Assembly: GCA_017460745.1 (NCBI GenBank)
Contig: JAFUAL010000042.1
Coordinates: forward strand, 14,983-78,982
DNA from: Bacilli bacterium
GTDB taxonomy: Bacteria > Bacillota_I > Bacilli_A > RF39 > UBA660
DNA: 64,000 nt
Direction of reading: 5' to 3'
Position 1 is the first letter of the stretch. Each line of letters starts with the position of its first letter. The translations under genes and the position numbers were made by a program. Shown in pieces: positions 24,828 to 43,504 of the stretch. The notes beneath the pieces are model-generated. The model worked only from the letters and a program-made list of their open reading frames with translations. It searched no databases and was not told where the DNA came from.

Positions 24828-24828
24828 G

Positions 24829-25857: not shown

Positions 25858-25860
25858 TCT

Positions 25861-27315: not shown

Positions 27316-30088
27316 TTTAGAAACAAAAGCATATAGAATGTTAAAAGAATTTTTAAGAGGAGAAAACAAGTCTATAGAAAAAATAAGGGAGGCTATTGAT
27401 ACAATATTAGAAATGAGTATTTTCAAAGAATCAAATATAGAAGATATCAAAAATACTATATATGATGAATATATAACTAATATTGGAATTGTAAATCCTG
27501 ATGCAGAATTTCTTGTTAAAGATAAAGATTTCAATAATTGGATGAAATTATCCAATGCTTCTACAAATTGCTTTGATAGATATATGGACTATTTAAGGGA
27601 CATGGATTTTCCGGAAGCCTCAATTGAAAAAATGACTAAGGCAACAAACGATATACTAGCTAGATGTGCCGATCCAAATAATTTAAATGACCATAAGAAC
27701 TCTAAGAAAAAAGGCTTGGTAATGGGAGATATTCAATCTGGAAAAACTGCAAATTACACTGCTTTAATAAATTTGGCTGCTGATTATGGATACAAAGTGA
27801 TAGTACTACTAGCTGGTATGACAGATTCTTTGAGAGAACAAACACAAAAACGTATTGATTCAGGATTTATTGGTGCCAAGAGTGATACCATAAGTAGTTC
27901 AATAATAAATTTTGTAGGCGTAGGAAAAGAAGAAAACAAGTATTATGCCATCCCTTTAACTAATGTTAATTCAGATTTTGGTAAAGTGGTAAGAGAAAAT
28001 CAGAATACCAATTCTAGCGATTTTAATAAACCACTAATATTGGTTATTAAGAAAAATAAAAGTGTATTAAAGCAGGTTAAAGATTATTTAAAACCAGGAA
28101 TTCATGGAATCACTTCAGAAAATATTTTAATTATTGATGATGAGGCTGATAATGCATCTGTTAATACCAAAAATAATGATGATCCATCAATTATTAATAA
28201 GCTAATTCGAGATTTATTCAATAATTTTACTATTGCTTCGTACGTTGGATTTACAGCAACGCCTTTTGCAAATATATTTATAAATCCATATGATGATGAT
28301 TTTAATAAAGATTTATTTCCATCAGACTTTATCGTTCAATTAAGGGAACCTTCATCATATTTTGGAGCAAATAAGGTTTTTAATAATCTTGGAAGTATAG
28401 ATGAGCCTAAATATAAGCATATAGAAATACTAGATCCGCATGAAAAAAACTTTTTACTATTAACACATAAAAAAGATGATGAAATATTTCCTGTTCTACC
28501 TAATAGTTTGAAAAAAGCAATAAATGATTTCATAATTGTAAATGTTATTAGAACATTAAGAGGGAAAGAATTTAAACATAGGACCATGATGATTAATATT
28601 TCTCGTTTTAATGCAATCCAATATAAAATATATGATAAAATCAATGATTATATTGATTTGATGAAAAATACTATATCACAAACTTATAAATCGGATTTTA
28701 ATAGTTTTATTAGAGATCCTTACATGAATGATTTATATGAAGAATATAATGATGAATTTTTCTCTGAAATAAGAGAAGAATTTACATGGGATCAAATTCA
28801 AGAAGGTTTAAATAGTGAGATTCAACAATTTATAGTTACAGTAGTAAATAATAACAATAAGAAAAATAGATTTAATTATGATAATTATGAAAAAGAAGGA
28901 GCTAGAGTAATCGCTATTGGAGGATTTATTCTATCAAGAGGTCTTACTTTAGAGGGATTAATGATAAGCTACTTCAATAGAAAAGCCAATGCTTATGACA
29001 CAGTATTACAGATGTGCAGATGGTTTGGATACAGACCAGGATACGAAGATTTATGCAGAATATATATGACTCAAGAAAATATTGATAATTTTGAGGATGT
29101 CATAGATGCCGTATCAAATTTAAAAGAGCAATTTAAACAAATGGATGTAGAAAATAAAACACCTGAGGATTTTGGATTAATGGTAAAACAATCGCCAGCA
29201 AGACTAAATATGCAAATGTTTATTTCGAGTGGAGAAGAGCTTGAAAAATTTGAAAAGATGGGCATTACTGCTAAAAACAAAATGAGAAGCACCGAGGAAA
29301 AAATAATAACACTGAACTATAGTGGAATTGCTACGGATACATCCAAGTTATTTAATGATAAAGTAAAAAATGAAGAAAACAAAAATACAATCGACTTATT
29401 ATTTAATAGTTTAAAAGATAAAGAATTAAATTTAGAGTATGTTGGTGGGAGATTAATGGTTCAAAGAATACCAAAAGGCATTATTTCTGATTTTATTAGC
29501 AAATTTAAATTACCATTTCTAAATAAGAATTTTGATACAGAGAGTTTATCAGAATATATCAAGAATTCTGTTTTCATGCAAGAATGGGATTTAGTTATAG
29601 CAACGGGTTCTAAGAATGATAATGATTATTGGAACTTTGAAGGCTATAATATACCAGTTATAACTCGTTCATTTGACATGAATTATTCAGATAACATAAT
29701 ACGAATTTCTGGAAATAAAAACAGATTGTATGAACCTGGTATTTTTAATAGTGGTTTGAATGATAAACAATTGTCACAGGCAAATATGAACATGGTTTAT
29801 CATGAAAGAAAAAATCTTATTGCAGAAGACTATTTAAATATTCAAAGGCGTCCATTATTAGTAATATACCCAATTAGGTTAAAAAAGAAAAAGAATTCAC
29901 CAGTCAATGATTCTGAAATGAAAGCAATTAATAATTTTAATAATGGAACCCCATTGTTCGGAATTGCTTTAGGTTTTCCTGGTATTAAAACAAATGAAAG
30001 AGTTAGCTACAGACTAAATAAAGTTAAGATTGAGCAATTATCTCTTGATTTTGAGTATGAGGAGGAATATGATCCTAATGAAGATTAA
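27308..30088 (+). CDS. Z1-domain protein (SF2 helicase-like P-loop NTPase)
   Basis: Start at ATG 27308, overlapping the GHKL stop by 8 nt. Walker A GDIQSGKTANYT, DExx box IIDDEADNAS, GFTATPFAN. Z1 signature RGLTLEGLMISYFNRKANAYDTVLQMCRWFGYRPGYEDLCRIY. Confidence 0.85.
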   Translation: MSDLETKAYRMLKEFLRGENKSIEKIREAIDTILEMSIFKESNIEDIKNTIYDEYITNIGIVNPDAEFLVKDKDFNNWMKLSNASTNCFDRYMDYLRDMDFPEASIEKMTKATNDILARCADPNNLNDHKNSKKKGLVMGDIQSGKTANYTALINLAADYGYKVIVLLAGMTDSLREQTQKRIDSGFIGAKSDTISSSIINFVGVGKEENKYYAIPLTNVNSDFGKVVRENQNTNSSDFNKPLILVIKKNKSVLKQVKDYLKPGIHGITSENILIIDDEADNASVNTKNNDDPSIINKLIRDLFNNFTIASYVGFTATPFANIFINPYDDDFNKDLFPSDFIVQLREPSSYFGANKVFNNLGSIDEPKYKHIEILDPHEKNFLLLTHKKDDEIFPVLPNSLKKAINDFIIVNVIRTLRGKEFKHRTMMINISRFNAIQYKIYDKINDYIDLMKNTISQTYKSDFNSFIRDPYMNDLYEEYNDEFFSEIREEFTWDQIQEGLNSEIQQFIVTVVNNNNKKNRFNYDNYEKEGARVIAIGGFILSRGLTLEGLMISYFNRKANAYDTVLQMCRWFGYRPGYEDLCRIYMTQENIDNFEDVIDAVSNLKEQFKQMDVENKTPEDFGLMVKQSPARLNMQMFISSGEELEKFEKMGITAKNKMRSTEEKIITLNYSGIATDTSKLFNDKVKNEENKNTIDLLFNSLKDKELNLEYVGGRLMVQRIPKGIISDFISKFKLPFLNKNFDTESLSEYIKNSVFMQEWDLVIATGSKNDNDYWNFEGYNIPVITRSFDMNYSDNIIRISGNKNRLYEPGIFNSGLNDKQLSQANMNMVYHERKNLIAEDYLNIQRRPLLVIYPIRLKKKKNSPVNDSEMKAINNFNNGTPLFGIALGFPGIKTNERVSYRLNKVKIEQLSLDFEYEEEYDPNED

Positions 30089-31016
30089 TTTTGAAGATAA
30101 ATTTAAAGAACTAAGTGCAATTAGCGATATATTAAAAAAGGTTGATAGTAATAATAAAGTAAAGATTTTTTATGGTTTATCAAAAGAAGGCAAAAAAAGA
30201 TTAGCATTTTTATCAACAATTGTTCCTAGTCAAATAGAATCTACAAAAATGATAAGTGTTAGTTATTATAAAGATAATGAAAATTCAAATTGGTTAAGTT
30301 TTGATCTAGAAAATAATAACTATTCCAATCTATTCTATACTTTCTGTACAGATATGGTTAATTCATTGAATGGATTAAATGATGAAAAAGAAGAATTAGA
30401 ATATTTAAAACAAAGATTTTATAATTGGAAAAAGATGTTTCAAAATATATCTACTAAAGAATTATCAGAGGAAAAAGAGCAAGGAATATATGGAGAATTG
30501 TATTTTTTATACAAGTATATGATTCCAAAATATGGTGTAGAGAAATCGATTTTATCATGGGCTGGACCACATAAGTTTAACAAAGACTTTTCAATTGACG
30601 AAAATTGGTACGAAATTAAAACATCAAGTGTTAATGCTACTACAATTGAAATAAGATCAATTAATCAATTAGATTCAGATGTTGATGGTTTTCTTGCTGT
30701 AGTTAAGGTTGAAAAAATGTCTACGGAATATAGAGGGGAATTGTCATCTATTTTTGAATTAATTCAAGCTATCATGAGTGAAATTACAAGTATTCAAATT
30801 CAAGACGATTTTCTTAATAAACTAATTGAGTTAGGGGTTGGACCTGAAAATAATTTTGGCTCACGCCGCTATGATACAAAAAATATATTATTATATAATG
30901 TGTCAGATAAATTTCCTAGGCTTACAAGAAAAAATATAGCATTCGCTGAAATAGAAAATGTTACTTATACTATTAATCTTTCTCAAATTGATAAATTTAA
31001 GTTGGAGGAATTATGA
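30078..31016 (+). CDS. PD-(D/E)XK-motif protein (DUF4420-like)
   Basis: Start at ATG 30078 (or 30069) after RBS GAGGAGGA, overlapping the Z1 3' end. GIYGELYFL...GPHKFNKDFS...WYEIKTSS gives an E...D...ExK pattern. Confidence 0.7.
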   Translation: MKINFEDKFKELSAISDILKKVDSNNKVKIFYGLSKEGKKRLAFLSTIVPSQIESTKMISVSYYKDNENSNWLSFDLENNNYSNLFYTFCTDMVNSLNGLNDEKEELEYLKQRFYNWKKMFQNISTKELSEEKEQGIYGELYFLYKYMIPKYGVEKSILSWAGPHKFNKDFSIDENWYEIKTSSVNATTIEIRSINQLDSDVDGFLAVVKVEKMSTEYRGELSSIFELIQAIMSEITSIQIQDDFLNKLIELGVGPENNFGSRRYDTKNILLYNVSDKFPRLTRKNIAFAEIENVTYTINLSQIDKFKLEEL

Positions 31017-33106
31017 TAAGTTTAGAAGAATTTAGAGAGGATTATATAAATGAAATCAATTTAACAGCTATCGAAAATAGTGAGCATCAACCAGATGCTT
31101 TCATTGATGAAATGTCTGAAACACTTATAGAAGACTTTTCCATAATTAATGGTTTGGACAGATGTTTTTATTCATTTAATAAAGGAACTAAGGCCTTCAA
31201 AAATATGCAAATAGATGGTGGCTATTTAGATCTTCCAGCAAATGTTATTGATTTACTAATTGCAGATTATAATCCCGGAGATGTAACAACAATAACTAAT
31301 GAATTTATTAATTCAAAGTCACAATTGATGATTAATTATTTTGAAAATGTGCTAAAAGGCTATTTTACAAATGCAGAATATAGTAATGAAGCGGTTCAAC
31401 TAGCGTATAGTATTTTAAATAATTTGGATTCTATAAATAAAATTCACCTGGTTATTATATCTACTAATAAACTGAGTACAAGAGTTAAAACAATAGATTT
31501 TCCTGACTTTATTTATAATAATAGAAAATTTAAAGTTGAATTAGATGTTATTGATATTCAAATGATATATAATTCCAGATTAAAAGATTTTAAAAAAGAG
31601 CCAGTTGTTATAAATACTGCTGATTTTGGATTAAATGGTATTCAATGTATAAAAGCTGATATTGGTACCAACGATTATGAAGCCTACTTAGCAATTGTAC
31701 CTGGTAAGTTTTTATGTGATATATATGAAAAGTATGGTCCTAGATTATTGGAGTCAAATGTTAGATCATTTTTAAATGCAAAGGGAACAGTTAATAAAGG
31801 TATTCGTGGTACAATATTAAACGAGAGAAACAAATTTTTTACATATAATAACGGAATTTCTACAGTCGCAAAAGATATTAAGACTAAAATCATTCCTAAT
31901 GAAGGATTATATATAACTGAATTTAATGATTTTCAAATAATTAATGGTGGGCAAACAACAGCATCCTTAGCATCGGCTGATATTAGAGATAAAGCTCCGT
32001 TAGATAATATTTATGTTCAAATGAAATTAACTATTGTTAAAGAGGATGCTCCTGAATTTGTACATAATATTTCAAAATATGCTAACAGCCAAAATAAAGT
32101 AACTGCGGCAGATCTTAACTCCAATCATCCATTCTATATAAAAATGGAAGAATTTTCTAGAAAAACATTTGCGCCACCTGTTAATAATCAACCATACCAG
32201 ACACTATGGTTCTTTGAAAGAGCTCGTGGACAATATGATCAGCCAAAAATGAGTATGACTAAAGCAGAACGTGAAAAATATACTAAGCTAAATCCAAATA
32301 ATCAAAAATTTACTAAAACTGATTTAGCAAAATATTTAAATTCAGCTGCTATGAAGCCATATGCTGTTTCAAAGGGTGCACAATTGAATTTAATTGATTT
32401 TCAAACCGATTTAGAAGCACAGTGGAATAAAGATAAACTTTCATTTAATGAATTGTTCTATAAAGATTTAATTTCTAAGGCAATCTTATTTAAAACAATA
32501 GAGAAAGTTATTTCTGAACAGAATTGGTATATAGAGAATAAAGCATATAGGGCTCAATTGGTAACATATTCATTTTCAAAATTAATTTATGAAGTTAAAA
32601 AAAATGGTAATATGGAATTGGACTATAAAACAATATGGGATAAGCAAAGTGTACCAGACTATATTATTGATGAAATAATTAACATTTCAAAACTATGTTT
32701 TGATGCATTTAACGATCCTAATAGAACATTTAATAATATTGGTGAATATACAAAAAGAAAAGATTGCTGGACTATTATAAAAGACAAGAATTATACATTA
32801 TCTGAAGATACTATAGATTCACTAGTATCAAAAGAAGAGAAAAAAATAGAAGCTATTAGTGCAAAAAAAGATGAAAAATTAAATAATTCTGTTATGCAAG
32901 AAGTTGAAATATTTCAACTTGGTATAGATTATTGGAATAGAGTTAAGCAACTAGGCATTGAACAAAATATTTTGAATGGTAGAGATATAGAATTTATAGA
33001 TTATGCAATTAAATATTGCAATGGATTAGTAATGGGTATGTCACCTGCACAAACTAAAATTATTTTTGAGATAAAAGACAAATTAGAACAGCATGGTATT
33101 AAATAA
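31013..33106 (+). CDS. AIPR (abortive-infection phage-resistance) family protein
   Basis: ATGA overlap with the upstream gene. About 700 aa with NVRSFLNAKGTVNKGIRGTI...FFTYNNGIST...IINGGQTTASL, which matches my memory of the AIPR core. Confidence 0.7.
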   Translation: MISLEEFREDYINEINLTAIENSEHQPDAFIDEMSETLIEDFSIINGLDRCFYSFNKGTKAFKNMQIDGGYLDLPANVIDLLIADYNPGDVTTITNEFINSKSQLMINYFENVLKGYFTNAEYSNEAVQLAYSILNNLDSINKIHLVIISTNKLSTRVKTIDFPDFIYNNRKFKVELDVIDIQMIYNSRLKDFKKEPVVINTADFGLNGIQCIKADIGTNDYEAYLAIVPGKFLCDIYEKYGPRLLESNVRSFLNAKGTVNKGIRGTILNERNKFFTYNNGISTVAKDIKTKIIPNEGLYITEFNDFQIINGGQTTASLASADIRDKAPLDNIYVQMKLTIVKEDAPEFVHNISKYANSQNKVTAADLNSNHPFYIKMEEFSRKTFAPPVNNQPYQTLWFFERARGQYDQPKMSMTKAEREKYTKLNPNNQKFTKTDLAKYLNSAAMKPYAVSKGAQLNLIDFQTDLEAQWNKDKLSFNELFYKDLISKAILFKTIEKVISEQNWYIENKAYRAQLVTYSFSKLIYEVKKNGNMELDYKTIWDKQSVPDYIIDEIINISKLCFDAFNDPNRTFNNIGEYTKRKDCWTIIKDKNYTLSEDTIDSLVSKEEKKIEAISAKKDEKLNNSVMQEVEIFQLGIDYWNRVKQLGIEQNILNGRDIEFIDYAIKYCNGLVMGMSPAQTKIIFEIKDKLEQHGIK

Positions 33107-33134
33107 AAAAGGAAAATCTTCGATTTCCTTTTTT
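33107..33134. terminator. Bidirectional terminator between AIPR and the convergent restriction gene
   Basis: AAGGAAAATC-ttc-GATTTCCTT hairpin (one bulge), flanked by an A-run and a T-run. Confidence 0.65.
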
Positions 33135-34410
33135 ATTTATATATAATATCATCAGGCCTTATGTTGCTTTTATAATTATTATATTGTTCATCCAGATTGT
33201 TTAAGTACTTTTCTAATTTATTTAAGTCCTTTGAACTATCTAGTATATATTTATTTGTTAGTTGAGCAATTTTGCTTCCATTAATCATAATTAGTGGATA
33301 TTGATCTTCCAGAATCTCTTCTTGTGTTTGTTGCGAAAAAGTGGAGTTTGTAACAAACACACCTACATAATTCCTTTTTAATTTTGCAATTGTTCTTGCT
33401 ATATCTTTACTATTTATGGTTTCATTTTGACATTTTGCTTGTCCTATTACTACCATTTTTATTCCTGCTAAATCTTGACCAATATCAATTCTTGTTATAA
33501 AATCTATTCCTTTGTCTCCAGAACCTTTAGTTATGTAGCCTTCTAAATATTTAGTATTATTTTCCATAAAGAAAAATTGGGTAATTTGTAAAGCAAATAG
33601 TTCAAATTGTAATTTTTTATTTTTATAATGTTCTTCAATAATTCCGATTATTTTATCTTCAAACGAACTACTATTTGCTTTTTGATCTTTTTCTTTAATT
33701 ATTCTTGATTTTAATACATGACGTCTGACTTTTTCAATATTATCATTGCCGTTTTTAACCCAATATTTCCATGATAAAGGTGCATTTTTATTTGCTTCTT
33801 GGATTGATAATCTATTATTACATCTATCAGATATCCATTCCCAATCTAATTGATTATTTTCATTTGATAAGTCTAAAATACAAAATTCAAATTCGAAATT
33901 TGTAAATTCATTATTATCGGCTTTTTGTGTTATTAGGCTAACTTTTTCAATTACTCCAAATCCATGAAATTGTAGATATCCTTTTTTTATTCTTTCAAAA
34001 AAAACTATTGGAACTGCTTTTTCTCTTTCTTTTATATCATTTGAGCTATGTTTTTTCCATTCGTCCATTAGGATTTTATTTCCACTTGCAGTTGATGGAT
34101 TAATACTATTACTTTTGCAATCACCATAATATATTACAATACCATTATCTGGATCATATCTATCTTTCCATGGCGTGTTTTCTGTTCCAGCTTTATGTGG
34201 CGAACTTGAAATAATTATAATTGGATCTCGATCACCATCAACGGCTTTAATATTTTTTGCTTTATGTATTCCTCGTTCAAATCTAAATGTTGAATCTAAA
34301 TTTTTTGATTTTGTATAATAAATAAAGTTTTTAGTATTATCGATAAATTCTTGAGCATTTGTGCTATAATCATTAGATAATCTAAATATATCGCCAATTC
34401 TTAATTTCAT
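33133..34410 (-). CDS. Putative modification-dependent (type IV) restriction endonuclease: SRA/YDG-like N-domain + Mrr-type PD-(D/E)XK C-domain
   Basis: C-terminus GDKGIDFITRI...MVVIGQAKCQ matches the Mrr_cat D...(Q/E)xK motif. N-terminus GIHKAKNIKAV...PIIIISSS...DRYDPDNGIVIYYGD...SGNKIL parallels the SRA pattern (GIH...SLVLSGGY.DD.D.G..F.YTG...N.AL). Confidence 0.65.
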   Translation of the reverse strand: MKLRIGDIFRLSNDYSTNAQEFIDNTKNFIYYTKSKNLDSTFRFERGIHKAKNIKAVDGDRDPIIIISSSPHKAGTENTPWKDRYDPDNGIVIYYGDCKSNSINPSTASGNKILMDEWKKHSSNDIKEREKAVPIVFFERIKKGYLQFHGFGVIEKVSLITQKADNNEFTNFEFEFCILDLSNENNQLDWEWISDRCNNRLSIQEANKNAPLSWKYWVKNGNDNIEKVRRHVLKSRIIKEKDQKANSSSFEDKIIGIIEEHYKNKKLQFELFALQITQFFFMENNTKYLEGYITKGSGDKGIDFITRIDIGQDLAGIKMVVIGQAKCQNETINSKDIARTIAKLKRNYVGVFVTNSTFSQQTQEEILEDQYPLIMINGSKIAQLTNKYILDSSKDLNKLEKYLNNLDEQYNNYKSNIRPDDIIYK

Positions 34411-34640
34411 AGTATCATACCTCTATAAATATTATACTATAAAACCAATCCATTTTTTGTATTTTTTCACTTTTACATTTCCTATTATATAAACTTTGAT
34501 AAACTATGATAAATTATTAATGTCCACAAAACCTTATTTTATAAGGAATCTAAATTTTCGTATAAGTAATAATTCGTGCGGGGGGTGGCCCCTCTGAAGA
34601 GAGCAAAATAATTTTTCAACAATTATTTTGTTATGCATAC

Positions 34641-34704
34641 AATAATATGGGTGAATTAATTATATATGAATAATGGATACAGAATAGTTGTTGATGCGGG
34701 ACAC
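34641..34704 (+). repeat. Direct repeat copy 1: non-functional duplicate of the amidase gene 5' end
   Basis: AATAATATGGGTGAATTAATTATATATGAATAATGGATACAGAATAGTTGTTGATGCGGGACA matches 37389-37451 with 1 indel and 2-3 substitutions. The indel creates a stop (MGELIIYE*). Confidence 0.9.
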
Positions 34705-34760
34705 CTAAATACGAAGTTCCCCAAATTAAAGATATAACAAATATTAAGTCTATAAATGTA

Positions 34761-34789
34761 AAGATACTTGGGAGAGTATCTTTTTTTTT
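34761..34789 (+). terminator. Hairpin + T9 run just inside the left repeat
   Basis: AAGATACT-tgggag-AGTATCTT followed by TTTTTTTTT. No intact gene lies upstream on this strand, so it is probably a relic. Confidence 0.55.
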
Positions 34790-34815
34790 GTATAATAATT
34801 TTGGAGTTGATTAGT

Positions 34816-35661
34816 ATGAAATTGAATTATCGATTAATAAAAATAAGTTGTATAGTAATGGTGATAACGTTGTGTATTACTTCTATATTAACTTTTGCCT
34901 GTACTCAAAATAGAGTTATTATTTATATTAGTAATATTCTTTTGAATATTTTTGCTGGTGCTGTTATTTTGTTTATAACATCACTTGTTGAATATTTTGC
35001 TAGTAGAAAAAAAGATTTGGAAACTCTTATGAAATTTATTCTTGATTACCGAAATAAATTTTCTAAAATTAAATATTTGGAGGAAGTTAAATTATTAAAT
35101 CATGATGAATACAAGAAAAAATTTAATAAGGACGATAGTAATGTAGAATTACTTTTGAAAGTAGGTAATGAGTGTGATGAATATAATAAAGGATTAATAA
35201 AAAACTTTGATAAGACTATAGATGCATATATAGATATTTCAAAAATAAATTTTAATGATTTTTGGGATATTTATGCAGATTTACGTTTTATATTTAATAA
35301 TAAAAAAAATAATTTAAAACTTTATAATGAAATTTTTAAATATATATATGATGAAGCAAATTTAATTAGAGAATTATCTTACCATTTAAACATCTACAAA
35401 ACATCTGATGTTAATCCTATTGTTATGTATGATAAAATAAGAAAATATCAAAATCATATTTTTTATGAAAAAGAATTAATGCCCGGAGAGAAATTGAATA
35501 AAAAGAATATGGAATTGATTAAAAGCGGAATTTCTTATCAAACAACATGGCGAAAAGACAAAAGTTCATTTTTTGTATACAATAAAATGACAAAATATTT
35601 AGATGAACAGTATGATAATGTTGGAAAGATAGCATATTTTAATAACGATTATAAAAATTAA
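34816..35661 (+). CDS. Hypothetical membrane protein (2 N-terminal TM helices + helical soluble domain)
   Basis: Start at ATG 34816 (RBS GGAG at 34803; the track TTG start at 34768 was rejected). TM helices IKISCIVMVITLCITSILTFA and IIYISNILLNIFAGAVILFITSLV. No motif recognised. Confidence 0.65.
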   Translation: MKLNYRLIKISCIVMVITLCITSILTFACTQNRVIIYISNILLNIFAGAVILFITSLVEYFASRKKDLETLMKFILDYRNKFSKIKYLEEVKLLNHDEYKKKFNKDDSNVELLLKVGNECDEYNKGLIKNFDKTIDAYIDISKINFNDFWDIYADLRFIFNNKKNNLKLYNEIFKYIYDEANLIRELSYHLNIYKTSDVNPIVMYDKIRKYQNHIFYEKELMPGEKLNKKNMELIKSGISYQTTWRKDKSSFFVYNKMTKYLDEQYDNVGKIAYFNNDYKN

Positions 35662-35709
35662 TTAAATAATTTTGTAAAAAAATATGGTGATATAATTTGA
35701 GGTGTAATA

Positions 35710-36744
35710 ATGAATTTAACTGAATTAAATACAATTTTGGTGGCATCAGAATTAAAGTCGCTTTACAGTATTACAAAAGGAATTATTAATTGTGAAAATA
35801 ATTCTATAGTAAGCTTAGGATTTTTCAATTATGTAATCTTATTATCAGTAGAGATATGTGATTATGCAAATGAAACATATGGTGATAAGTTAACTTATAA
35901 ATATAAAAGAAAAATAAAAGAATGTAGAGCTAGAATTAAAGAATATAATATTGAATCTAGTGAAATATTAGCATTAATTGAAAAGACAAATGTGGAATCA
36001 ATAGATTATTTTTATAAAGATTTATCTAAATTAGTTCAAATGATATTTGGCTCTTTGATAACTAATTTAGGAATCTATAAATATAACGATAAAATTATTT
36101 CTAATACTTTTTTAATATCAAAGGACTTAAAACCTATTATTTATAATGATAGAAAAATTGATAAAAAAAGAATAAAAGAAGTATCAACTTCGTTAGGAAT
36201 GTTATTAAATACTTTATATTTAATTTTTTATAAAGATGTTCAAGTTCAAGCAAATGTTAATATTAAGTATAATTTTGTTTTAGAAGATTACAATGTTAGA
36301 AAAAAAAATAATTTACTTAATCCAAAAATAAATAATAATGAAGCATTATTTTTTTTAGATATATTGTCAATTTTAAATTTCTGTAAAGAAATTATATATT
36401 ATTTTGAAATATGTGATGAATTGAAATATCGAATTTTTTATTTGGCATTTTATAGAACGTATCATAATACCATTAAACTCGTTGAAAAAGATGATAAATA
36501 TCTGAATATAAATAATATATTAAAAAAATACTATAACTTGGATAATAAAGTATTTAGAAATGCAATGTTTCATTATAATATAACAGATAAAATTAATAGT
36601 AATGAAATTAAATTTGATCAAATGTATTATGGAATAATTTTTAAGTATTTAAAAATGAGTGATATTGAATATAAAAAAAGTATAATAAATTATTTTACAG
36701 AGCTTTCCTCAGCTATATCGAATATAATTTTATTCAAAAAGTAA
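35710..36744 (+). CDS. Predicted HEPN-type (Rx4H) helical protein, Abi-like
   Basis: All-helical 344-aa protein with FRNAMFHYN near the C-terminus (R283-x4-H288, nt 36556-36573), the RNxxxH form of the HEPN RNase motif as in the Abi_2/AbiD-F families. RBS GAGGTG upstream. Confidence 0.55.
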   Translation: MNLTELNTILVASELKSLYSITKGIINCENNSIVSLGFFNYVILLSVEICDYANETYGDKLTYKYKRKIKECRARIKEYNIESSEILALIEKTNVESIDYFYKDLSKLVQMIFGSLITNLGIYKYNDKIISNTFLISKDLKPIIYNDRKIDKKRIKEVSTSLGMLLNTLYLIFYKDVQVQANVNIKYNFVLEDYNVRKKNNLLNPKINNNEALFFLDILSILNFCKEIIYYFEICDELKYRIFYLAFYRTYHNTIKLVEKDDKYLNINNILKKYYNLDNKVFRNAMFHYNITDKINSNEIKFDQMYYGIIFKYLKMSDIEYKKSIINYFTELSSAISNIILFKK

Positions 36745-36936
36745 ATAAAATTATAACTTTTTTACCAAAAATATAAATTATATTTTTGTAATAGCAAGCA
36801 CTGAATTTGTACACGCACAAAATTCGCTTGATGGGACTTGAATTTAAATAATAATCAAGTTACTACAGGGTCGCTTTAATTATAAATACGAAAAGTTGTT
36901 TCTTTGAATTTCTATTAGTAATATTTATATAAGTAA

Positions 36937-36999
36937 AAAAGACTATCATTTTTATTGAACCAATATTTCAATAAAGTTGATAGTCTTTTAATTTTTTTA
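36937..36999. terminator. Long compound hairpin (12 bp + 8 bp stems), bidirectional terminator
   Basis: AAAAGACTATCA (36937-36948) pairs with TGATAGTCTTTT (36978-36989). The inner stem is TTATTGAA (36952-36959) with TTCAATAA (36967-36974). T-runs are present on both strands. It overlaps the stop of the minus-strand ORF. Confidence 0.65.
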
Positions 37000-37309
37000 T
37001 TTGTTCATCTTTTAATATATGTTCTTCAATACTTGGATCATATTCTAGTTTTAAATATCCAAGTAATTCATTTATATTTTTAATTAATTTTTTTGATGTT
37101 TCATCTAATTTATTATTCTTTTTTAAATGTTTTTCTAAATCATCAACATAATCTTGTAAATCTATATCAAGATGTCTTCTTTTATCAACTTCATGTAATA
37201 CTATTTTGTTAGCATATTCATGATCTTGAACTTTTTTATAATATCTTTTATAATTTACAATTACATTATTATCACTATGTTCAACTAAATCTTCTGAGTA
37301 TCCAACCAT
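36968..37309 (-). CDS. Small acidic/basic helical ORF (113 aa), possibly a gene fragment
   Basis: ORF only; no convincing RBS upstream (…AAACTGGCTAAAATG). Its 5' end abuts the right direct repeat at 37389. Confidence 0.3.
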   Translation of the reverse strand: MVGYSEDLVEHSDNNVIVNYKRYYKKVQDHEYANKIVLHEVDKRRHLDIDLQDYVDDLEKHLKKNNKLDETSKKLIKNINELLGYLKLEYDPSIEEHILKDEQIKKLKDYQLY

Positions 37310-37388
37310 TTTAGCCAGTTTTTTTAAAATCTAAATTTAGATATTTTTTGAACGATTTTAAAGTAACTTTTATTAAACTAACTCATAA

Positions 37389-37451
37389 AATAATATGGGT
37401 GAATTAATTAATATGAATAATGGATATAGAATAGTTGTTGATGCTGGACAT
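37389..37451 (+). repeat. Direct repeat copy 2 (functional 5' end of the amidase gene)
   Basis: See copy 1 at 34641-34704. Homology starts at AATAATATGGG and ends at GGACA. Flanks are unrelated. Confidence 0.9.
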
Positions 37452-38807
37452 GGAGGAAGTGATCCTGGGGCAGTATCTGGAAATTTAAGAGAAAAGGATT
37501 TTACTTTAAAAGCTGCTAATTATATGTATAATAGATTTAGAGAATTAGGAGTTCCTGTTGCTATTACAAGAAATACGGATGAAACATTAAGCAGAACTGA
37601 AAGACTTAATACTATGAGAAATACATTTGGAAATGATTCTAAAGTAATAGTATTATCAAATCACATAAATGCAGGAGGAGGCGAGGGTGCAGAAGTAGTA
37701 TACCCACTTCGTACTTCTTCAACACTTCCGTCAATGATTTTAGAAGAAATTGGTAATCGTGGTCAAATAAAAAGAAAGTATTATCAAAGAGTACTTCCAG
37801 AAAATCCAAGTAAGGATTATTATTACATCATGCGTGAAACACCAAATACAACAGCTTTATTAATTGAATATGGGTTCATTGATAATCCAAATGACCAAAG
37901 AAAATTACAAAATAATTTACTTGAATATGTAGAAGGGGTAGTTGAAGCTGTATCAGATTATATTGGAATTAACTACACACCACCTGGCTCTTCTGTACCT
38001 GATACTGACGGACTTTATACGGTTAAAAGAGGAGATACACTTTATTCCATTGCAAGAGAATATAATATAACTGTCAATGAATTAAAAAGTTTAAATGGTT
38101 TAACCAGTAATAACTTAAGCATTGGTCAAACACTTAAAGTACCAAATTTAGAAATACCAGAAGAAATAGAACAAGATGAATACATTGTAAAACAAGGTGA
38201 TACATTATCATCAATTGCAAGAGAGTTTAATACAACTGTAAATGATTTAATAACTTATAATGATCTTCCTACAACAATACTAAGTGTTGGTCAAATTTTA
38301 AGAATTCCAGGAAATCCTTCAAGTGATTTAATTTATATAGTACAACCAGGTGATACTTTATATGCTATTGCTAATAACTATGGTGTAAGTGTCGATGCTA
38401 TAAAGGAGTTAAATAACTTAACAAATAATACTTTAAGTATAGGACAAAATTTGTATATACCAAAAGGAACAACTATAGAAGAAACAGATTATGTTGTTTA
38501 TCAAGTAGAACCAAGTGATACTTTATATAGTATTGCAAGACGTTATAATACAAGTGTTGATGCTATTAAAGACTATAATAATTTAACAAGTAATGTTTTA
38601 ACAATCGGACAGAATCTTCAAATACCTGTTCAAAAAGTACAAACAGAAAATATAACCTATGTAGTAAAAAGAGGCGATACATTATATAAAATAGCAAATG
38701 ACTATGGTGTAACTGTTTTAGATATCATGAATTTGAATAACATGGATTCTACATTACTAAGCATTGGAGAAACTATTTTAATACCAAATCAAAAAGGTGA
38801 TTTTTAA
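37395..38807 (+). CDS. N-acetylmuramoyl-L-alanine amidase (Amidase_3) with five C-terminal LysM repeats
   Basis: VVDAGHGGSDPGAV and LSNHINAGGGEGAEV. Five Y.V..GDTLY.IA LysM units. No signal peptide, so endolysin/CwlC-like. The start could also be ATG 37413. Confidence 0.9.
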   Translation: MGELINMNNGYRIVVDAGHGGSDPGAVSGNLREKDFTLKAANYMYNRFRELGVPVAITRNTDETLSRTERLNTMRNTFGNDSKVIVLSNHINAGGGEGAEVVYPLRTSSTLPSMILEEIGNRGQIKRKYYQRVLPENPSKDYYYIMRETPNTTALLIEYGFIDNPNDQRKLQNNLLEYVEGVVEAVSDYIGINYTPPGSSVPDTDGLYTVKRGDTLYSIAREYNITVNELKSLNGLTSNNLSIGQTLKVPNLEIPEEIEQDEYIVKQGDTLSSIAREFNTTVNDLITYNDLPTTILSVGQILRIPGNPSSDLIYIVQPGDTLYAIANNYGVSVDAIKELNNLTNNTLSIGQNLYIPKGTTIEETDYVVYQVEPSDTLYSIARRYNTSVDAIKDYNNLTSNVLTIGQNLQIPVQKVQTENITYVVKRGDTLYKIANDYGVTVLDIMNLNNMDSTLLSIGETILIPNQKGDF

Positions 38808-38821: not shown

Positions 38822-38934
38822 AATATTGACATATTTATTTAAATAATATATATTGCTATTAACAAGTGGATGATATTCGATAAGTTATTCGAATATGCTA
38901 ATAAAAATATTGTATGAATTAGGTGGTGAATAAG

Positions 38935-39367
38935 ATGGATCAAGATAAAATGCATTTGGTAAATAAATTATTTAATAGTGAAACAATTAGAACAATTTGG
39001 AATAAAGAGCAAGAAAAATATTTTATAAGTATTGTGGATTTAGTTGGATTATTATCAGAAAGTAAAAACAAACATGCATATTGGAGAAAGTTAAAACAGC
39101 GTTTAAAAGAAGAAGGAAATGAAACCATGACAATTTGTCACGCTTTGAAACTAAAAGCGCAAGATGGTAAATATCGTATGACTGATGTAGTTGACATTAA
39201 GGGGAAGTTTAGAATTATTGAATCTGTTCCTAGTAAGAATGCGGAGGTAAAATTGCAGGTAATGCAATAAAAAAATTAGAAAATGAACTTGGTGAAAGCA
39301 TAATTACTAGCGATAATGCACTTAATTATGAGTATGTAGATGAATTAGAAATTGAAATGGAAAAATA
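38935..39367 (+). pseudogene. Bro-N-domain protein, internally deleted and frameshifted
   Basis: FNSETIRTIWNKEQEKYFISIVDLVGLLSES...YWRKLKQRLKEEGNE...LKLKAQDGKYRMTDV is the widespread Bro-N family. The ORF stops at 39270, right after SKNAEVKLQ. The -1 frame continues GNAIKKLENELGESIITSDNAL... (typical C-terminal tail) to 39367. Confidence 0.6.
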
Positions 39368-39410
39368 ACTATATAATTAACAATAATTATATTTATAGGA
39401 GGTATAACAT

Positions 39411-39677
39411 ATGGAAAAAAATATTGAAGAAATAACATTATTATTAATGTATTTAACATCTTGGGAAGAAGATGGATATGTAGCTGATGAGAATGATATG
39501 CCAAAAGAAGCAAAAATTAAAACTTGTTGGAAAGGATATTCATTTGATATTATTAATAAATTAACTGATGATAATTATCTTTATTTTAGTAAATGTAAAA
39601 ACAAATCTATTTCTTTAACTCCAAAAGGAGAAGAATTAGCTAAAAAATTAATCGATAAATATATAAAAAATAAATAG
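39411..39677 (+). CDS. Small DUF6429-like (winged-helix-like) protein
   Basis: ITLLLMYLTSWEE...CWKGYSFDIINKL...SISLTPKGEELAKKLIDKY matches my memory of the DUF6429 family pattern. Confidence 0.55.
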   Translation: MEKNIEEITLLLMYLTSWEEDGYVADENDMPKEAKIKTCWKGYSFDIINKLTDDNYLYFSKCKNKSISLTPKGEELAKKLIDKYIKNK

Positions 39678-39690
39678 GAGGTGACTCAAA

Positions 39691-40890
39691 ATGACTGCAC
39701 CAAAATTAGATTTTTTATTAGAGATATTGGATAATAGAAATAATAATCCTGAAAGTTATGATACTAAGGTAAAAGAAAAAATAAATGAGTTGTATGATTT
39801 GTTAGATAAAATAAAGCCATTATCTGATGATGAATATAAAGTTTTATATTTTAGTGTAGAAAAGGGAAATATTGAAGAATATGGTAATTATGAAGAGTTA
39901 AAAGTAGATGGTGAAGTTGATAGCTACGAAGAATTTAAAACTAGATTTAATGAAGACTACGCAGATGAAATAATGTGGTATAAAATGACTTCTACTAAGT
40001 ATAAAAATTATCGTATGATATCAATTAATTCCAAAACTATAATATATGCTGATATGAATAATGAAAATACAAATTTTGAAGATTATCAATTGCAAGAATT
40101 ATTAGATTTTCTTATAATCAAAGTGAAAGATTGTATTCAAAAACTTGAAGACGAAACTTACAATGATTATATATCAAATAATTATTCTTATAAAAATAGA
40201 TTCGGCGTAATAAAAAGAAATGTGTATTGGAATATATATCCAGATACTAAGAAAAAACTATTAAATGAAATATCACAAGAAGAAATGAACTATTTCATTG
40301 AAAATGCAAGCGATAAAACTAATAATAGAATAAAAAATATGACATCTAGAAAGTATTTTGAATGTGTCGGATTAGTATATGAAAATATAGGTTATGAAAT
40401 AAGTAATTTAACAGATAAAGAACTATATTTAAAATATGCTGATGGTAGAGATGAAGGCTTAAGTAAAATTGATGAGAATAGTAGTCAAGAATTTGATAAA
40501 TGGTATAATGATTATAGCAAGTTTGGAGGACATCCTTGGGAAATTATAAGAGGTCATTCGTTTACTAGAGTTAATTTACAAGTTCACAATGATGATAATG
40601 GATATTATTTATCGCTTGATGGTAATATAATCTTAAGAAAAATTGAAATAGCTAAAATATTTATTGCACTAAATAAAAATAATATACCAGTACAAATATA
40701 TAATGTAAATATAATAAAGAATGCATTTAAGGGTATTGATTATATTGGCATTGTTCCTAATGATATTATGCCAATTGAATGTGGTGGTTATTTTAAAAAA
40801 TACAAACCAACTGAATTTATACATATGGAAGATAATAAAATATTTAAGTACATTGAGTGGGAATTATTAGAAAATATAGAATTAAAATAG
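39691..40890 (+). CDS. Hypothetical protein (399 aa)
   Basis: RBS GGAGGTG upstream, 13-nt gap after the previous gene. No motif recognised. Confidence 0.6.
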   Translation: MTAPKLDFLLEILDNRNNNPESYDTKVKEKINELYDLLDKIKPLSDDEYKVLYFSVEKGNIEEYGNYEELKVDGEVDSYEEFKTRFNEDYADEIMWYKMTSTKYKNYRMISINSKTIIYADMNNENTNFEDYQLQELLDFLIIKVKDCIQKLEDETYNDYISNNYSYKNRFGVIKRNVYWNIYPDTKKKLLNEISQEEMNYFIENASDKTNNRIKNMTSRKYFECVGLVYENIGYEISNLTDKELYLKYADGRDEGLSKIDENSSQEFDKWYNDYSKFGGHPWEIIRGHSFTRVNLQVHNDDNGYYLSLDGNIILRKIEIAKIFIALNKNNIPVQIYNVNIIKNAFKGIDYIGIVPNDIMPIECGGYFKKYKPTEFIHMEDNKIFKYIEWELLENIELK

Positions 40891-40901
40891 AGGAGAAAAA
40901 T

Positions 40902-42341
40902 ATGAAGTATGAAAAGTATTTAATAAAAAAGGGCAAATTAGATTTGTTATCATCTTTAAAATCTTTAGATAAAAATTTACTTAATAAAACATTAAAAGAA
41001 TCTGGAATGAGTAGCCTTGAAGAATTAAAGAATGCAATTATCGAAGAATTTGAAATGAGTTTAGATATGTCAAAAGATGATCAATTTACAAGAATGTATT
41101 TTGAAAGATTACTTAATCATGAAAATTCAGAATGGATGTCAGCATATCAACAAGATATTGAGAATTTTTTAGTTTTTGTGTATGAAAATGGAGATTATTA
41201 TTCTTATTATATTCCAATTGAGATAAAAGAAATAATTAATAGATTACTAGGTAGCATGACTCCAGAAGAAAAATTTAATTTAGAAAATGCTGCTAATACA
41301 CCAATAGTAAAAGATTTAAAAGGACTATTGGATACATTAAGTGTTAGTGACTTGAAACATATCGGTGGATTATTACATGTTAATAGACTAAGTAACAAAC
41401 CTAAAAAAGAACTAGTTAAAATTATTTATAGTGCTCTTACAGATAAGGATAAATTGATAGATGTAATTGAAAGATTTATAGATAAAGAATTTGATTTATT
41501 AAAAGATTTGATGATTAACAAAGGTACTATTCAAAATAATAACATCAATATGGAAACATATCATTTCTTATATATGGTCGGTATAGTTTTCCTATTTAGA
41601 AGAGATAATAAATTTTACGTTTCTATGACTGATGATGTTTACAATACTATGAAAAAAGTAAATTTAAATAGTGTTCAAAAAATAGTAGATGAAAACACAA
41701 AGGTATATAATCTTGTTAGAGCAATGGTTGAATTATATGGTGTATTTTCATATAGTTATTTAGATTATTATTATAGTTTATATTATGGTAACGGTGAAGA
41801 ATTAGATACGCCAAATAATGCATTATTATTTTGTGAGAGAGCAGATAACATAGATATAATTCATACAGAACATAATATGTATTTTATTAATAGAATACTT
41901 GGACAAAAGGAATTTGAACCGTTATTAGATGATATTATCTCAAGACAAGAAAGTATTAAAAGAAAACCAATTAAATTAGAAAAATTACTTAAATACTCAA
42001 ATTATGATTATTACGAAGAAACAGAATCTAAAAATAAATTCAAAAAATATTTAAAAAGAAAAAACATTCCATCTGATACTATTGAAATAATTATAAAAAT
42101 AATTTCTGATATGTATAGACTTGGAAATAATTATATTAGTGCATCAATTGAAATGCTTCAAGATTATGGAGTAGAAGTAACGGAAAATAATATGCAAGAA
42201 ATAATAAAATATTTAATGGATATATATAATAATTCAAGAATTTGGTCTAATAATGGATGGACACCTATTGAAATGAGAAAAAATTATGAAGATATTTTTT
42301 TAAACGAAAATAGTGATAATGTAGATAGTTGTGAGTCGTAA
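40902..42341 (+). CDS. Hypothetical protein (479 aa)
   Basis: Start at ATG 40902 (RBS AGAGGAGAA; the upstream track start at 40857 overlaps the previous gene and was rejected). No motif recognised. Confidence 0.6.
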   Translation: MKYEKYLIKKGKLDLLSSLKSLDKNLLNKTLKESGMSSLEELKNAIIEEFEMSLDMSKDDQFTRMYFERLLNHENSEWMSAYQQDIENFLVFVYENGDYYSYYIPIEIKEIINRLLGSMTPEEKFNLENAANTPIVKDLKGLLDTLSVSDLKHIGGLLHVNRLSNKPKKELVKIIYSALTDKDKLIDVIERFIDKEFDLLKDLMINKGTIQNNNINMETYHFLYMVGIVFLFRRDNKFYVSMTDDVYNTMKKVNLNSVQKIVDENTKVYNLVRAMVELYGVFSYSYLDYYYSLYYGNGEELDTPNNALLFCERADNIDIIHTEHNMYFINRILGQKEFEPLLDDIISRQESIKRKPIKLEKLLKYSNYDYYEETESKNKFKKYLKRKNIPSDTIEIIIKIISDMYRLGNNYISASIEMLQDYGVEVTENNMQEIIKYLMDIYNNSRIWSNNGWTPIEMRKNYEDIFLNENSDNVDSCES

Positions 42342-42378
42342 AAGAAAATATATAGTATATAGTAGCAGGTGTTCTTAT

Positions 42379-42437
42379 GAATATCATGAAATTTAATACC
42401 AAATCAAGAAGGTGATTTTTAATAAGTCACTTTTTTT
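42379..42437 (+). repeat. Copy B: remnant of the amidase 3' end with an internal deletion + terminator
   Basis: GAATATCATGAAATTTAATACCAAATCAAGAAGGTGATTTTTAATAAGTCACTTTTTTT aligns to amidase nt ~38722-38731 joined to ~38777-38821. Confidence 0.85.
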
Positions 42438-42469
42438 ATGTTTAAATTAATAAATTCCTTATATGCATA

Positions 42470-42498
42470 TTGAAACCAAAATAAATGTTTGGTATAAT
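42470..42498 (+). promoter_or_regulatory. Sigma-A-type promoter of the 42.6-43.5 kb single-gene cassette
   Basis: TTGAAA (42470-42475), 17-nt spacer, TATAAT (42493-42498). Confidence 0.6.
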
Positions 42499-42565
42499 AC
42501 TCGTCAAACGAAGTAGCTTATTATTAGAAGTGAAAAACATTTATCAAATAAAGTGGAGAAGTAAT

Positions 42566-43504
42566 ATGGAAAATAGTAAAAATAATAAAAAAATAATTAT
42601 ATTTTTAATGATATTCATTGCATGTTTAATTATAATTAATTTTATTTGCGCATATCCTAAATATGAAATAACTGTAGAGATAATTGTTTGTTTAAGTTTA
42701 TTAACAATTTTGTCATTATCAGAGATGTTTGATGATCTCAGCATACCAAAGGTAATATCATTATCTAAAAATGTAAAAGAGATAAAGAAAGAAAATAATG
42801 ATTTAAAAGATACAAATATAAAATTATTGACACAAATTGCAAGCATTAAGAATTCTAATAGTCAAAATATTTTTCTGCCTAATTCTTTTAGTACTGTTAG
42901 TTCTTCGAATATAGATGATATAAATAAAAATGATGATAAAATTGAATCAGAAGAAAGTGATGTCCAAAGTAATTTAGAAAATAAGGATTATAAGGATTAT
43001 AGAACGCGTCATAAATATAGAAATAATTTAGACGTATTTATGTTAAAAAAAGTATTAGAGTTTAGTAACGATATTCCAAATTGTGATATTCGATATGATG
43101 TTAAGTTAATTAATGACAAAATTAGAGATGATAACATTATGAATAATGAGGTAAGGTTTGATGCATTAAAGTCAACTCCAAATGAAAACATTTTTTATGA
43201 AGTTAAAATTATACCATATCTATTTGATTTTTCTTATCAACTTCATTATATGTTAAGAACAATCGAATTATATAAAGATTATAGTAAAATTCCTTGCAAA
43301 TTGGTTTTAGTTTTACCTAAATTTGAAAAAGAATTAGAAAAAATATTATTTAATACAAGTAGAGATAGATTTTCTATGATTAAAGATAGGATATCAAATA
43401 GATTTGATCCCGCTATAAAAAATCATTTGTTAGAAATAGTGGAAGTAGATGTTTCTAAAGAAGAATTAGACAATTATATTAAAGAAAAAGAAGAATCAAA
43501 GTAA
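42566..43504 (+). CDS. Membrane-anchored coiled-coil protein with a C-terminal PD-(D/E)XK-like motif
   Basis: Start at ATG 42566 (RBS AAGTGGAGA), downstream of the predicted promoter. Two TM helices, then a coiled coil (KEIKKENNDLKDTNIKLLTQIASIKN). The C-terminal VRFDALKSTPNENIFYEVKI gives D-x12-E-x-K. Confidence 0.55.
   Translation: MENSKNNKKIIIFLMIFIACLIIINFICAYPKYEITVEIIVCLSLLTILSLSEMFDDLSIPKVISLSKNVKEIKKENNDLKDTNIKLLTQIASIKNSNSQNIFLPNSFSTVSSSNIDDINKNDDKIESEESDVQSNLENKDYKDYRTRHKYRNNLDVFMLKKVLEFSNDIPNCDIRYDVKLINDKIRDDNIMNNEVRFDALKSTPNENIFYEVKIIPYLFDFSYQLHYMLRTIELYKDYSKIPCKLVLVLPKFEKELEKILFNTSRDRFSMIKDRISNRFDPAIKNHLLEIVEVDVSKEELDNYIKEKEESK

Follow-up and report, generated by a model that had tools for sequence, protein, structure and literature searches.

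What is a 2.7-kb segment of DNA doing between two near-identical copies of the 5' end of a gene for a cell-wall amidase? The question is raised by a window of 64,000 nucleotides (the whole stretch analysed here) of 26% GC chromosomal DNA from an uncultured bacterium of the gut or rumen, a member of the Bacilli (contig JAFUAL010000042.1, positions 14,983 to 78,982), in which the original prediction, made from the letters alone, had seen 64-bp direct repeats at 34641-34704 and 37389-37451, and had taken the DNA between them for the scar of a cassette insertion or exchange. We consider it most probable, at roughly 85%, that the segment is the decayed left end of an integrative mobilizable element (IME) with a large serine recombinase (LSR), inserted at codon 13/14 of an N-acetylmuramoyl-L-alanine amidase gene and fused by microhomology to a second, intact allele of that gene. 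The direct repeat is then best read as two allelic copies of a functionally constrained amidase 5' end, one of them stranded at a left attachment site (attL) and the other in use.

Comparison of the window with itself by BLASTN and MAFFT recovered the repeat as 34636-34703 against 37384-37450 (94% identity over 68/67 nt, with three substitutions and one 1-nt indel), no more than 5 nt from the limits that had been read by eye, and in two copies only: a 34-nt core has exactly two exact occurrences in the 64 kb, where 100 shuffles give an expectation of 0. Similarity breaks off abruptly at both edges, and neither Pfam nor tblastn searches with five LSRs found an integrase or transposase between the copies, both as had been described. 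The segment is unlike a transposon insertion, in that the repeat measures 68 nt (not the 2-14 bp of a target-site duplication) and that terminal inverted repeats and a transposase are lacking; an integron- or transposon-type origin was rejected, none of the defining features being present. The right copy begins an intact amidase gene, in agreement with the original prediction (Pfam, NCBIfam). The left copy had been read from the wrong start, as MGELIIYE and a stop codon; because the amidase start that is conserved is the second of the ATGs, at 34666 in the left copy and at 37413 in the right, and gives MNNGYRIVVDAGH..., this copy instead reads as a micro-ORF of 23 aa, and equivalent fusion peptides stand at the attL of the related loci L002, L006, L016 and L081. 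The features of the two copies are as follows.

34619-34644, plus strand: promoter of the left (stranded) amidase copy, with AC (34619-34620), a 15-nt spacer ('type A') and CATACAATA (34636-34644); sigma-K-like
34636-34703, plus strand: left repeat, with -10 box, ribosome-binding site GGGTGA (34650-34655), ATG at 34666 and amidase codons 1-13; host-side (B) arm of attL; 94% identical to 37384-37450
34666-34737, plus strand: 23-codon micro-ORF MNNGYRIVVDAGHLNTKFPKLKI and stop, that is MNNGYRIVVDAGH followed by LNTKFPKLKI and stop; 13 amidase codons continuing into the element-side (P') arm
34702-34731, plus strand: attL core and element-side arm, from junction comparison; crossover CA (34702-34703), then CCTAAATACGAAGTTCCCCAAATTAAAG, with half-site GAAGTTCCCCAAATT
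37366-37392, plus strand: promoter of the functional amidase gene, with AC (37366-37367), a 16-nt spacer ('type B') and CATAAAATA (37384-37392)
37384-37450, plus strand: right repeat, from the alignment, with -10 box, ribosome-binding site, ATG at 37413 and codons 1-13 of the intact gene; unoccupied bacterial attachment site (attB) centred on CA (37449-37450)
37413-38807, plus strand: intact N-acetylmuramoyl-L-alanine amidase (Amidase_3 and five LysM), the target gene of the element family, from Pfam, NCBIfam and homologues in 63 species

Complete elements and the left attachment site

Our comparison set consisted of 63 species-level loci encoding relatives of the amidase (loci are labelled L001 onward), in which the gene is often interrupted at one of two places, namely after codon 13 (DAGH/GG; site 1) or at codons ~87-91 (NAGGGEG; site 2). 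The 5' end was intact in 29 loci, a further 29 start at site 2, and five have a site-1 right junction; about half of the 63 related species carry an interruption of LSR type. The proteins adjoining the junctions (508-553 aa, with Resolvase, Recombinase and Zn_ribbon_recom domains) are large serine recombinases, those of site-1 type having DUF4368 in addition, and at least 18 of the site-2 loci have an LSR gene within 10 kb.

Site-2 loci were recognised by an amidase match starting at residue ~80-89 (L007, L011, L013, L022, L024, L033-L043, L046-L048, L050, L051, L053-L058, L061, L062). The site lies in GGAGGTGGCGAAGG, the NAGGGEG codons, whose uninterrupted equivalent in the window is 37671-37690, and is usually accompanied by a different LSR family ('AGIYIRLS...', 508-553 aa) 1-4 kb upstream. 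In L022 and L046 the amidase is interrupted at both sites.

The complete elements are IMEs of 7-11 kb in which the LSR gene adjoins the right attachment site (attR) at amidase codon 13/14 (among the relatives, LSR genes were found in L010, L022, L076, L078, L079 and L081), and they fit the published sense of the term, as does their frequent decay (PMC5704250). In L076, L077 and L078 a 7.7-kb element runs from attL through a terminator, a transmembrane (TM) protein, a MobV relaxase (121 bits in L076, against a cut-off of 100), HTH, Big_2 and a minus-strand XRE regulator of 182 aa to genes of 85 aa, HTH_36 and 47 aa, the recombinase, attR and the amidase. Since L076 and L078 hold one element in two unrelated host backbones, it has evidently moved recently. 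L010 carries a 6.8-kb element, from attL (~1805) to attR (8636), with a serine protease-like gene, an XRE regulator, the recombinase and a gene which, from its sequence, we take to encode a Mob_Pre-type relaxase. L081 combines the backbone of the window (amidase, PedC-like, bPH, dnaE, pyk) with an element of ~11 kb; in L081-L084 the XRE regulator gene is divergent from an 86-aa/HTH_36/48-aa/LSR operon. In L079 (16897-19390) the recombinase is followed by a shortened P arm and then by a Bro-N gene in place of the amidase 3' part, a further decay route in which attR and the remainder of the target gene are lost.

These elements identify the left repeat. The junction at which amidase codons 1-13 run through CA into ..GAAGTTCCCCAAATT is found in the window and in eight other genomes (L002, L006, L016, L010, L076, L078, L079, L081), all of which have homologous P' arms (34704-34731 in the window) and the terminator that follows, and the attL region has 88.7% nucleotide identity to that of L081. 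In complete elements the P arm beside the recombinase gene, AATTTGGGnnCTTTC/TTTTTGGGGAACT, is the counterpart of the half-site GAAGTTCCCCAAATT in inverted orientation, and the recombinase-proximal junction of site 1 reads ...AAATTTGGGACTTTCC..CA/YGGnGG in L003, L010, L022, L031 and L046. Because the two element arms are inverted copies, the reconstructed attachment site of the free element (attP) is an imperfect palindrome around CA, as in L081 (TTTTTGGGGAACT..CA..AAGTTCCCCAAATT). Exchange at CA accounts for all observed site-1 junctions, and the point on the right at which the left repeat abruptly breaks off is consequently read as the recombinase crossover. On this comparison of junctions, the left repeat is evidently a true attL of a serine-recombinase element.

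The half-site occurs once in the window; a copy with one mismatch at 26706-26719 is within chance expectation. The attL and attR of complete elements have only the CA core in common, with no 64-bp repeat and no replacement for the amidase 5' end, and an origin of the right copy as a replacement 5' end borne by the element was rejected because complete elements carry none.

Contents of the segment

Gene by gene, positions 34705-37366 correspond to the left 2.66 kb of a site-1 amidase IME, as judged from the homologues of the following features.

34761-34796, plus strand: conserved left-end hairpin and T-run (34761-34789), overlapping the TTGGGA-17-TATAAT promoter of the first element gene; aligned in seven independent attL ends
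34816-35661, plus strand: protein of 281 aa with two TM segments, conserved first IME gene; 59-69% amino acid identity to the first gene after attL in L076-L080
35710-36744, plus strand: all-helical protein of 344 aa with an invariant FRNxxxHY motif; HEPN candidate, relic cargo; ten homologues at 37-56% identity
36792-36812, plus strand: conserved non-coding motif TAGCAAGCACTGAATTTGTAC, which recurs in other IMEs, within what had been called a compound hairpin
36937-36989, no strand: inverted repeat of 23 bp (91% complementary) that makes a hairpin at the regulator relic's 3' end
36968-37367, minus strand: pseudogene of the IME XRE-type regulator, with residues 54-179 of 182 kept, the HTH (1-53) gone and a +1 frameshift in an A-run near 37322

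Two core genes of the family are present, namely the TM first gene and the divergent XRE regulator, the latter shortened and frameshifted. The TM protein is 69% identical to the first gene of L076, and DNA homology to complete IMEs spans 34772-35657, ending at the TM stop codon. Upstream of it, the TTGGGA-17-TATAAT site is the best sigma-70-like promoter of the region, and the hairpin with which it overlaps would stop read-through from the amidase promoter. This hairpin had been noted as a relic terminator: a terminator it appears to be, although a conserved left-end one of the element family and not a relic. A generic terminator scan makes no call at 34761-34789 because the stem has too few G-C pairs. 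The minus-strand ORF that had been thought doubtful is the real remnant of the regulator gene, whose full-length homologues have 170-182 aa and HTH_3/HTH_19/HTH_31 domains; by tblastn it shows 80% amino acid identity over residues 68-179 (P0050) and 75% over residues 54-69 in the other frame, and it is 90% identical in nucleotides to the L081 regulator over 36989-37366. The motif region and the attL region likewise match the L081 IME at 86-90% nucleotide identity.

The original prediction had paired the TM protein with a HEPN protein, a pairing that the homologues contradict, since the TM protein is the first gene of the element and the relatives of the HEPN candidate are solitary. In five of five neighbourhoods inspected they lie at the margins of clusters of restriction-modification (RM), GmrSD and Abi genes, in no case with a TM partner alongside, and the candidate is therefore cargo and not half of a pair. 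Its assignment as a HEPN candidate comes from the motif alone, an Rx4-6H-type R283-N-x3-H288 in the C-terminal helical domain that is invariant across 11 aligned homologues. The AF2 model (pLDDT 79.5, whole protein) has no Foldseek match in the PDB at E<0.001, a PDB profile search found nothing, and a scan of genome contigs with the protein found no relatives. The TM, HEPN-like and small-ORF proteins have no match in Pfam, NCBIfam or PADLOC. Among L071-L075, which hold three of the HEPN-like homologues, the contig ends ~100-300 bp downstream of the gene in five of seven contigs, which suggests that strain-variable or repeated sequence follows there.

The compound hairpin of the original description is not significant as a DNA fold (z -1.5), and no Rfam match was found in 34300-37500 at E<=1. 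The motif of 18-21 nt within it occurs twice, inverted, in the L081 IME (10555-10585, 11695-11729), four times at ~52-nt spacing in L031 (1947-2175), and once in L061. An 18-nt form, AGCAAGCACTGAATTTGT, is thereby common to elements with different recombinases, and the inverted pair in L081 flanks genes downstream of XRE. The motif probably serves the element as a binding site for a protein, and its pattern resembles that of an operator or iteron, with an origin of transfer (oriT) as a further candidate.

What the window lacks of a complete IME is the regulator 5' end, the 86-aa, HTH_36 and 48-aa genes, the LSR and attR. Neither an LSR gene, present in the relatives, nor a MobV relaxase was found in the window (tblastn with five LSRs, and Pfam, for the former), and a window-wide search for relics of recombinases or IMEs returned the TM gene and the XRE relic only.

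The right junction and the history of the locus

The segment ends at a single joint.

37360-37366, no strand: breakpoint, at the microhomology AAAGTAA, which belongs both to the regulator gene and to the -35 region of the amidase's native promoter

The match to the L081 regulator runs as far as 37366, and that to native sequence upstream of the amidase starts at 37360 (L001), 37355 (L018) or 37363 (L081); AAAGTAA serves both as regulator codons 54-56 on the opposite strand and as the -35 region of the amidase promoter. The joint thus places the relic at -53 of a complete amidase allele, whose promoter spacer differs from that of the left copy. There is no element P arm upstream of the right copy, attR is absent, and the element ends inside the regulator gene; to judge by these sequences, the right repeat is an unoccupied attB with its promoter, not an element end. 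Three independent joints lie within a few nucleotides of the upstream edge of the promoter (-53 in the window, ~-58 in L006, ~-63 in L002), as would be expected if a working promoter had been selected for.

The promoters show that two alleles are involved. The form AC-N15-17-CATAnnnTA stands upstream of 36 of 43 amidase 5' ends, compared with 0.8% of random 110-nt windows, and agrees with the sigma-K consensus of B. subtilis (KCACM/GCATANNNTA, tabulated in PMC3416734). From -10 to +39 the two copies are 94% identical, whereas their -35 to -10 spacers are unrelated, that on the left resembling L006, L008 and L019 and that on the right matching the closest relatives, L001, L081 and L018. Constraint on the promoter, the ribosome-binding site and the catalytic-site codons explains how two diverged alleles can be alike from -10 on yet unlike just upstream. 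A CwlD-like second amidase in relatives (186 bits, under the curated cut-off of 221) weakly suggests that the host clade are spore-formers.

Under the history that we propose, an LSR IME would have inserted at CA 34702-34703, codon 13/14 (DAGH/GG) of the LysM amidase gene; its right ~3+ kb, recombinase and attR included, would have been lost; and one illegitimate recombination at AAAGTAA would have joined the regulator remnant to -53 of another lineage's amidase allele. Integration, right-end loss and the single joint emerge from the comparison itself, while the process behind the joint, and its direction, we infer from the sequences. Two directions may be envisaged: an incoming intact allele could have repaired the disrupted gene by homology-facilitated illegitimate recombination, with its homology anchor in the amidase body and the illegitimate joint at its free end, or a foreign block (defence island, promoter, attL and IME left part) could have been imported and attached immediately upstream of the resident gene.

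Direct repeats at both ends of a segment with no recombinase inside are also what a mobile cassette bounded by duplicated att sites would show, akin to a cis-mobilizable element (CIME) that a recombinase could mobilise in trans, and decayed elements keeping both attL and attR do exist (PMC5704250). We regard such a cassette as very improbable, however, given that the right repeat lacks an arm on the element side (the P/P' half-site being single in the window), that attL and attR of complete elements share no amidase-like arm beyond their CA core, and that the element sequence stops in a shortened gene at 37366 rather than at an att site. Of the site-specific integration put forward originally, insertion at the amidase 5' end and later loss of the recombinase (an LSR in the complete relatives) therefore stand; the att duplication does not, as complete elements exchange at CA without any repeat between attL and attR. 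Lower still, if only a little, we place a tandem or segmental duplication of the amidase 5' end in situ, followed by insertion of unrelated DNA: two copies in direct orientation 2.7 kb apart would be its natural product, yet the left copy ends at the crossover and runs into a P' arm conserved in eight other genomes, and the unrelated promoter spacers rule out in-situ duplication. For the same reason, repair from the sister chromosome after excision was rejected.

The capture of a cassette by homology, the other mechanism originally suggested, would yield the exact product observed: a circle closed at AAAGTAA (promoter, 13 codons, attL and IME left part) would be inserted by a single RecA crossover within ~69-92 bp of homology, the left copy keeping the spacer of the recipient and the right copy that of the circle, with the joint at -53. 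Such capture is nevertheless unlikely, though less remote than the two preceding explanations, and is not needed to explain the locus. It demands a circular intermediate, arising by reciprocal microhomology excision, with both survival and transfer of a non-replicating circle, and a crossover within ~70 bp at 94% identity; four runs showed neither a circle nor a deletion joint (contig-level data); and the lineage-typical right spacer would have to be foreign, with the atypical left one the recipient's own.

Several points weigh against the decayed IME fused to a second allele, or against parts of that account. That the recombinases are active, that CA is the crossover dinucleotide and that the amidase promoter depends on sigma-K is deduced from sequence. 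The 7-bp overlap could in part be a chance extension of the alignments in DNA of 26% GC. As to direction, the attL copy in L006 is 97.8% identical to the L008 allele, the resident copy only ~88% and the genome as a whole ~84%, which tends to favour import of a block over repair, and the lineage-typical spacer on the right copy of the window leans the same way. Finally, no same-species genome with a complete element was found, nor one with the empty site that the original prediction had proposed to look for. The nine contigs and four runs that carry the cassette all have one and the same arrangement (in the runs, one contig each, 100% identical over 33800-38200), and we consequently infer the history of the element from other species. 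No deletion or skipping joint was found in these nine contigs and four runs, in contig-level data that would miss rare variants. Run X5 holds an attL variant and cassette at ~96-98% identity on contigs too short to show the sequence that follows. With neither recombinase nor attR, the relic cannot move by site-specific recombination.

Surroundings of the amidase and comparison with known systems

From the left, the window holds fmt, polA, accessory genes, a Dcm-linked MzaB/Z1/DUF4420/AIPR defence cluster (23.7-33.1 kb) and a minus-strand AspBHI-like methyl-directed restriction endonuclease (REase), and then the repeat-bracketed segment, the amidase, a variable 4.6-kb block, PedC-like, bPH, dnaE and pyk. 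The defence island directly upstream of the relic (23712-34410) comprises a Dcm methylase, a 347-aa protein of no assigned family, MzaB-like HATPase, Z1, DUF4420 and AIPR (Mza-type) together with the divergent REase. In L043, AIPR and REase have 84-89% amino acid identity to those of the window and the amidase only 59%, and the island therefore appears mobile between lineages. A G+C-rich 30-mer (34577-34606, GTGCGGGGGGTGGCCCCTCTGAAGAGAGC) stands in the otherwise 26% GC spacer that separates the start of the REase gene from the left amidase promoter; it has no Rfam match and no homologue among the fetched loci. The variable block downstream of the amidase (38923-43504) holds a Bro-N-like/PDC-S13 N-terminal fragment, DUF6429 and three unknown ORFs; neither an amidase 3' fragment nor a recombinase relic was found in it. 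L001, L007 and L018 have the PedC-like gene directly after the amidase, without this block, and in L022 the gene that comes first after the site-2 attL (2479-2736) is a homologue of DUF6429. Further along, a TnpB/IS605 OrfB-type gene (54599-55711; HTH_OrfB_IS605, OrfB_IS605, Cas12f1-like TNB) lies between a GTPase gene and frr, with no tnpA noticed close by in the ORF list.

Relics recur at the amidase in other genomes. In L002 two relics succeed each other, an attL fragment of site 2 (codons 3-90) being followed by an attL of site 1 and this by the intact gene; L006 and L016 have one site-1 attL relic each beside an intact gene; and L010 has, at 12490-12840, a 3' amidase fragment from site 2 (residues 89-207, 78% identity) 2.5 kb downstream of an amidase that is intact from site 1 on. 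From these layouts, relics pile up on either side of the gene. A tentative and rather doubtful extension is that the amidase is a recurrent landing pad that builds the neighbouring defence island: a serine-recombinase IME bearing defence cargo would insert and lose its recombinase end, the intact allele would be re-established by microhomology, possibly after Hfr-like transfer from the integrated IME, and the site would be freed, with cargo deposited upstream of the amidase. The stacked relics of L002, the mirror relic of L010 and the 84-89% identical AIPR and REase of the distant L043 are compatible with such a cycle.

The main interest of the locus lies in the clade-wide targeting of the amidase at two sites, and in the pattern of a relic beside an intact gene that adds cargo to a defence island. 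An apparent recombinase-less cassette with long att repeats becomes an ordinary immobile relic in which terminator, TM gene, cargo, motif and pseudogene are all assigned, and the case cautions that long direct repeats at the 5' end of a gene can be two alleles rather than att sites. In addition, two natural attB sites in one gene (DAGH/GG and NAGGGEG), their cognate LSRs and the reconstructed attP arms are defined here from sequence; such sets of attB, attP and recombinase are the raw material of genome-integration tools. If the sigma-K-type promoter does mean mother-cell expression, the amidase would be a new candidate for gene interruption that is tolerated in development, and would also offer defence genes a way of gathering at a single place on the chromosome.

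Among known systems, the complete relatives are like published IMEs (PMC5704250) in their LSR, MobV relaxase, in-gene integration, variable cargo and frequent decay, and the window differs from these in holding the left 2.66 kb only, without recombinase, relaxase or attR, and an attL beside an intact attB. CIMEs and accretion of the ICESt1/ICESt3 type offer a likeness in the recombinase-less remnant at an integration site that is free for a new element, and in the stacking of relics, two in succession in L002. However, a CIME keeps attL and attR and can be excised in trans, and because attR is absent, the relic of the window is not one; moreover, in ICESt1/ICESt3-type accretion the att site of a tyrosine recombinase regenerates the target, whereas in the window it is a whole second allele, joined through microhomology, that supplies the free site.

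A further parallel is with the gene-intervening elements of sporulation genes, namely skin in sigK, SPbeta in spsM and gin in gerE (PMC4191935, PMC5595907), gin being one that is not a phage. The intact relatives resemble these in LSR type, in a split gene with a mother-cell-type promoter and in att sites of ~50 bp with inverted half-sites, and their excision might be tied to sporulation, as for skin. No recombination directionality factor (RDF) was identified for the amidase elements, and the amidase did not turn up as a gene-intervening target in the literature searched. Elements of the skin type split their gene; the amidase of the window is whole, and its relic is hence not a gene-intervening element. 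The product in the window looks like that of homology-facilitated illegitimate recombination during DNA uptake (a term used in PMC6382021), possibly through natural competence, in which a single homologous anchor would be combined with an illegitimate joint over a few bp of microhomology and the recipient DNA between the two would be lost. A decayed IME is thus a known kind of object, while the clade-wide targeting of one amidase gene at two sites is less ordinary.

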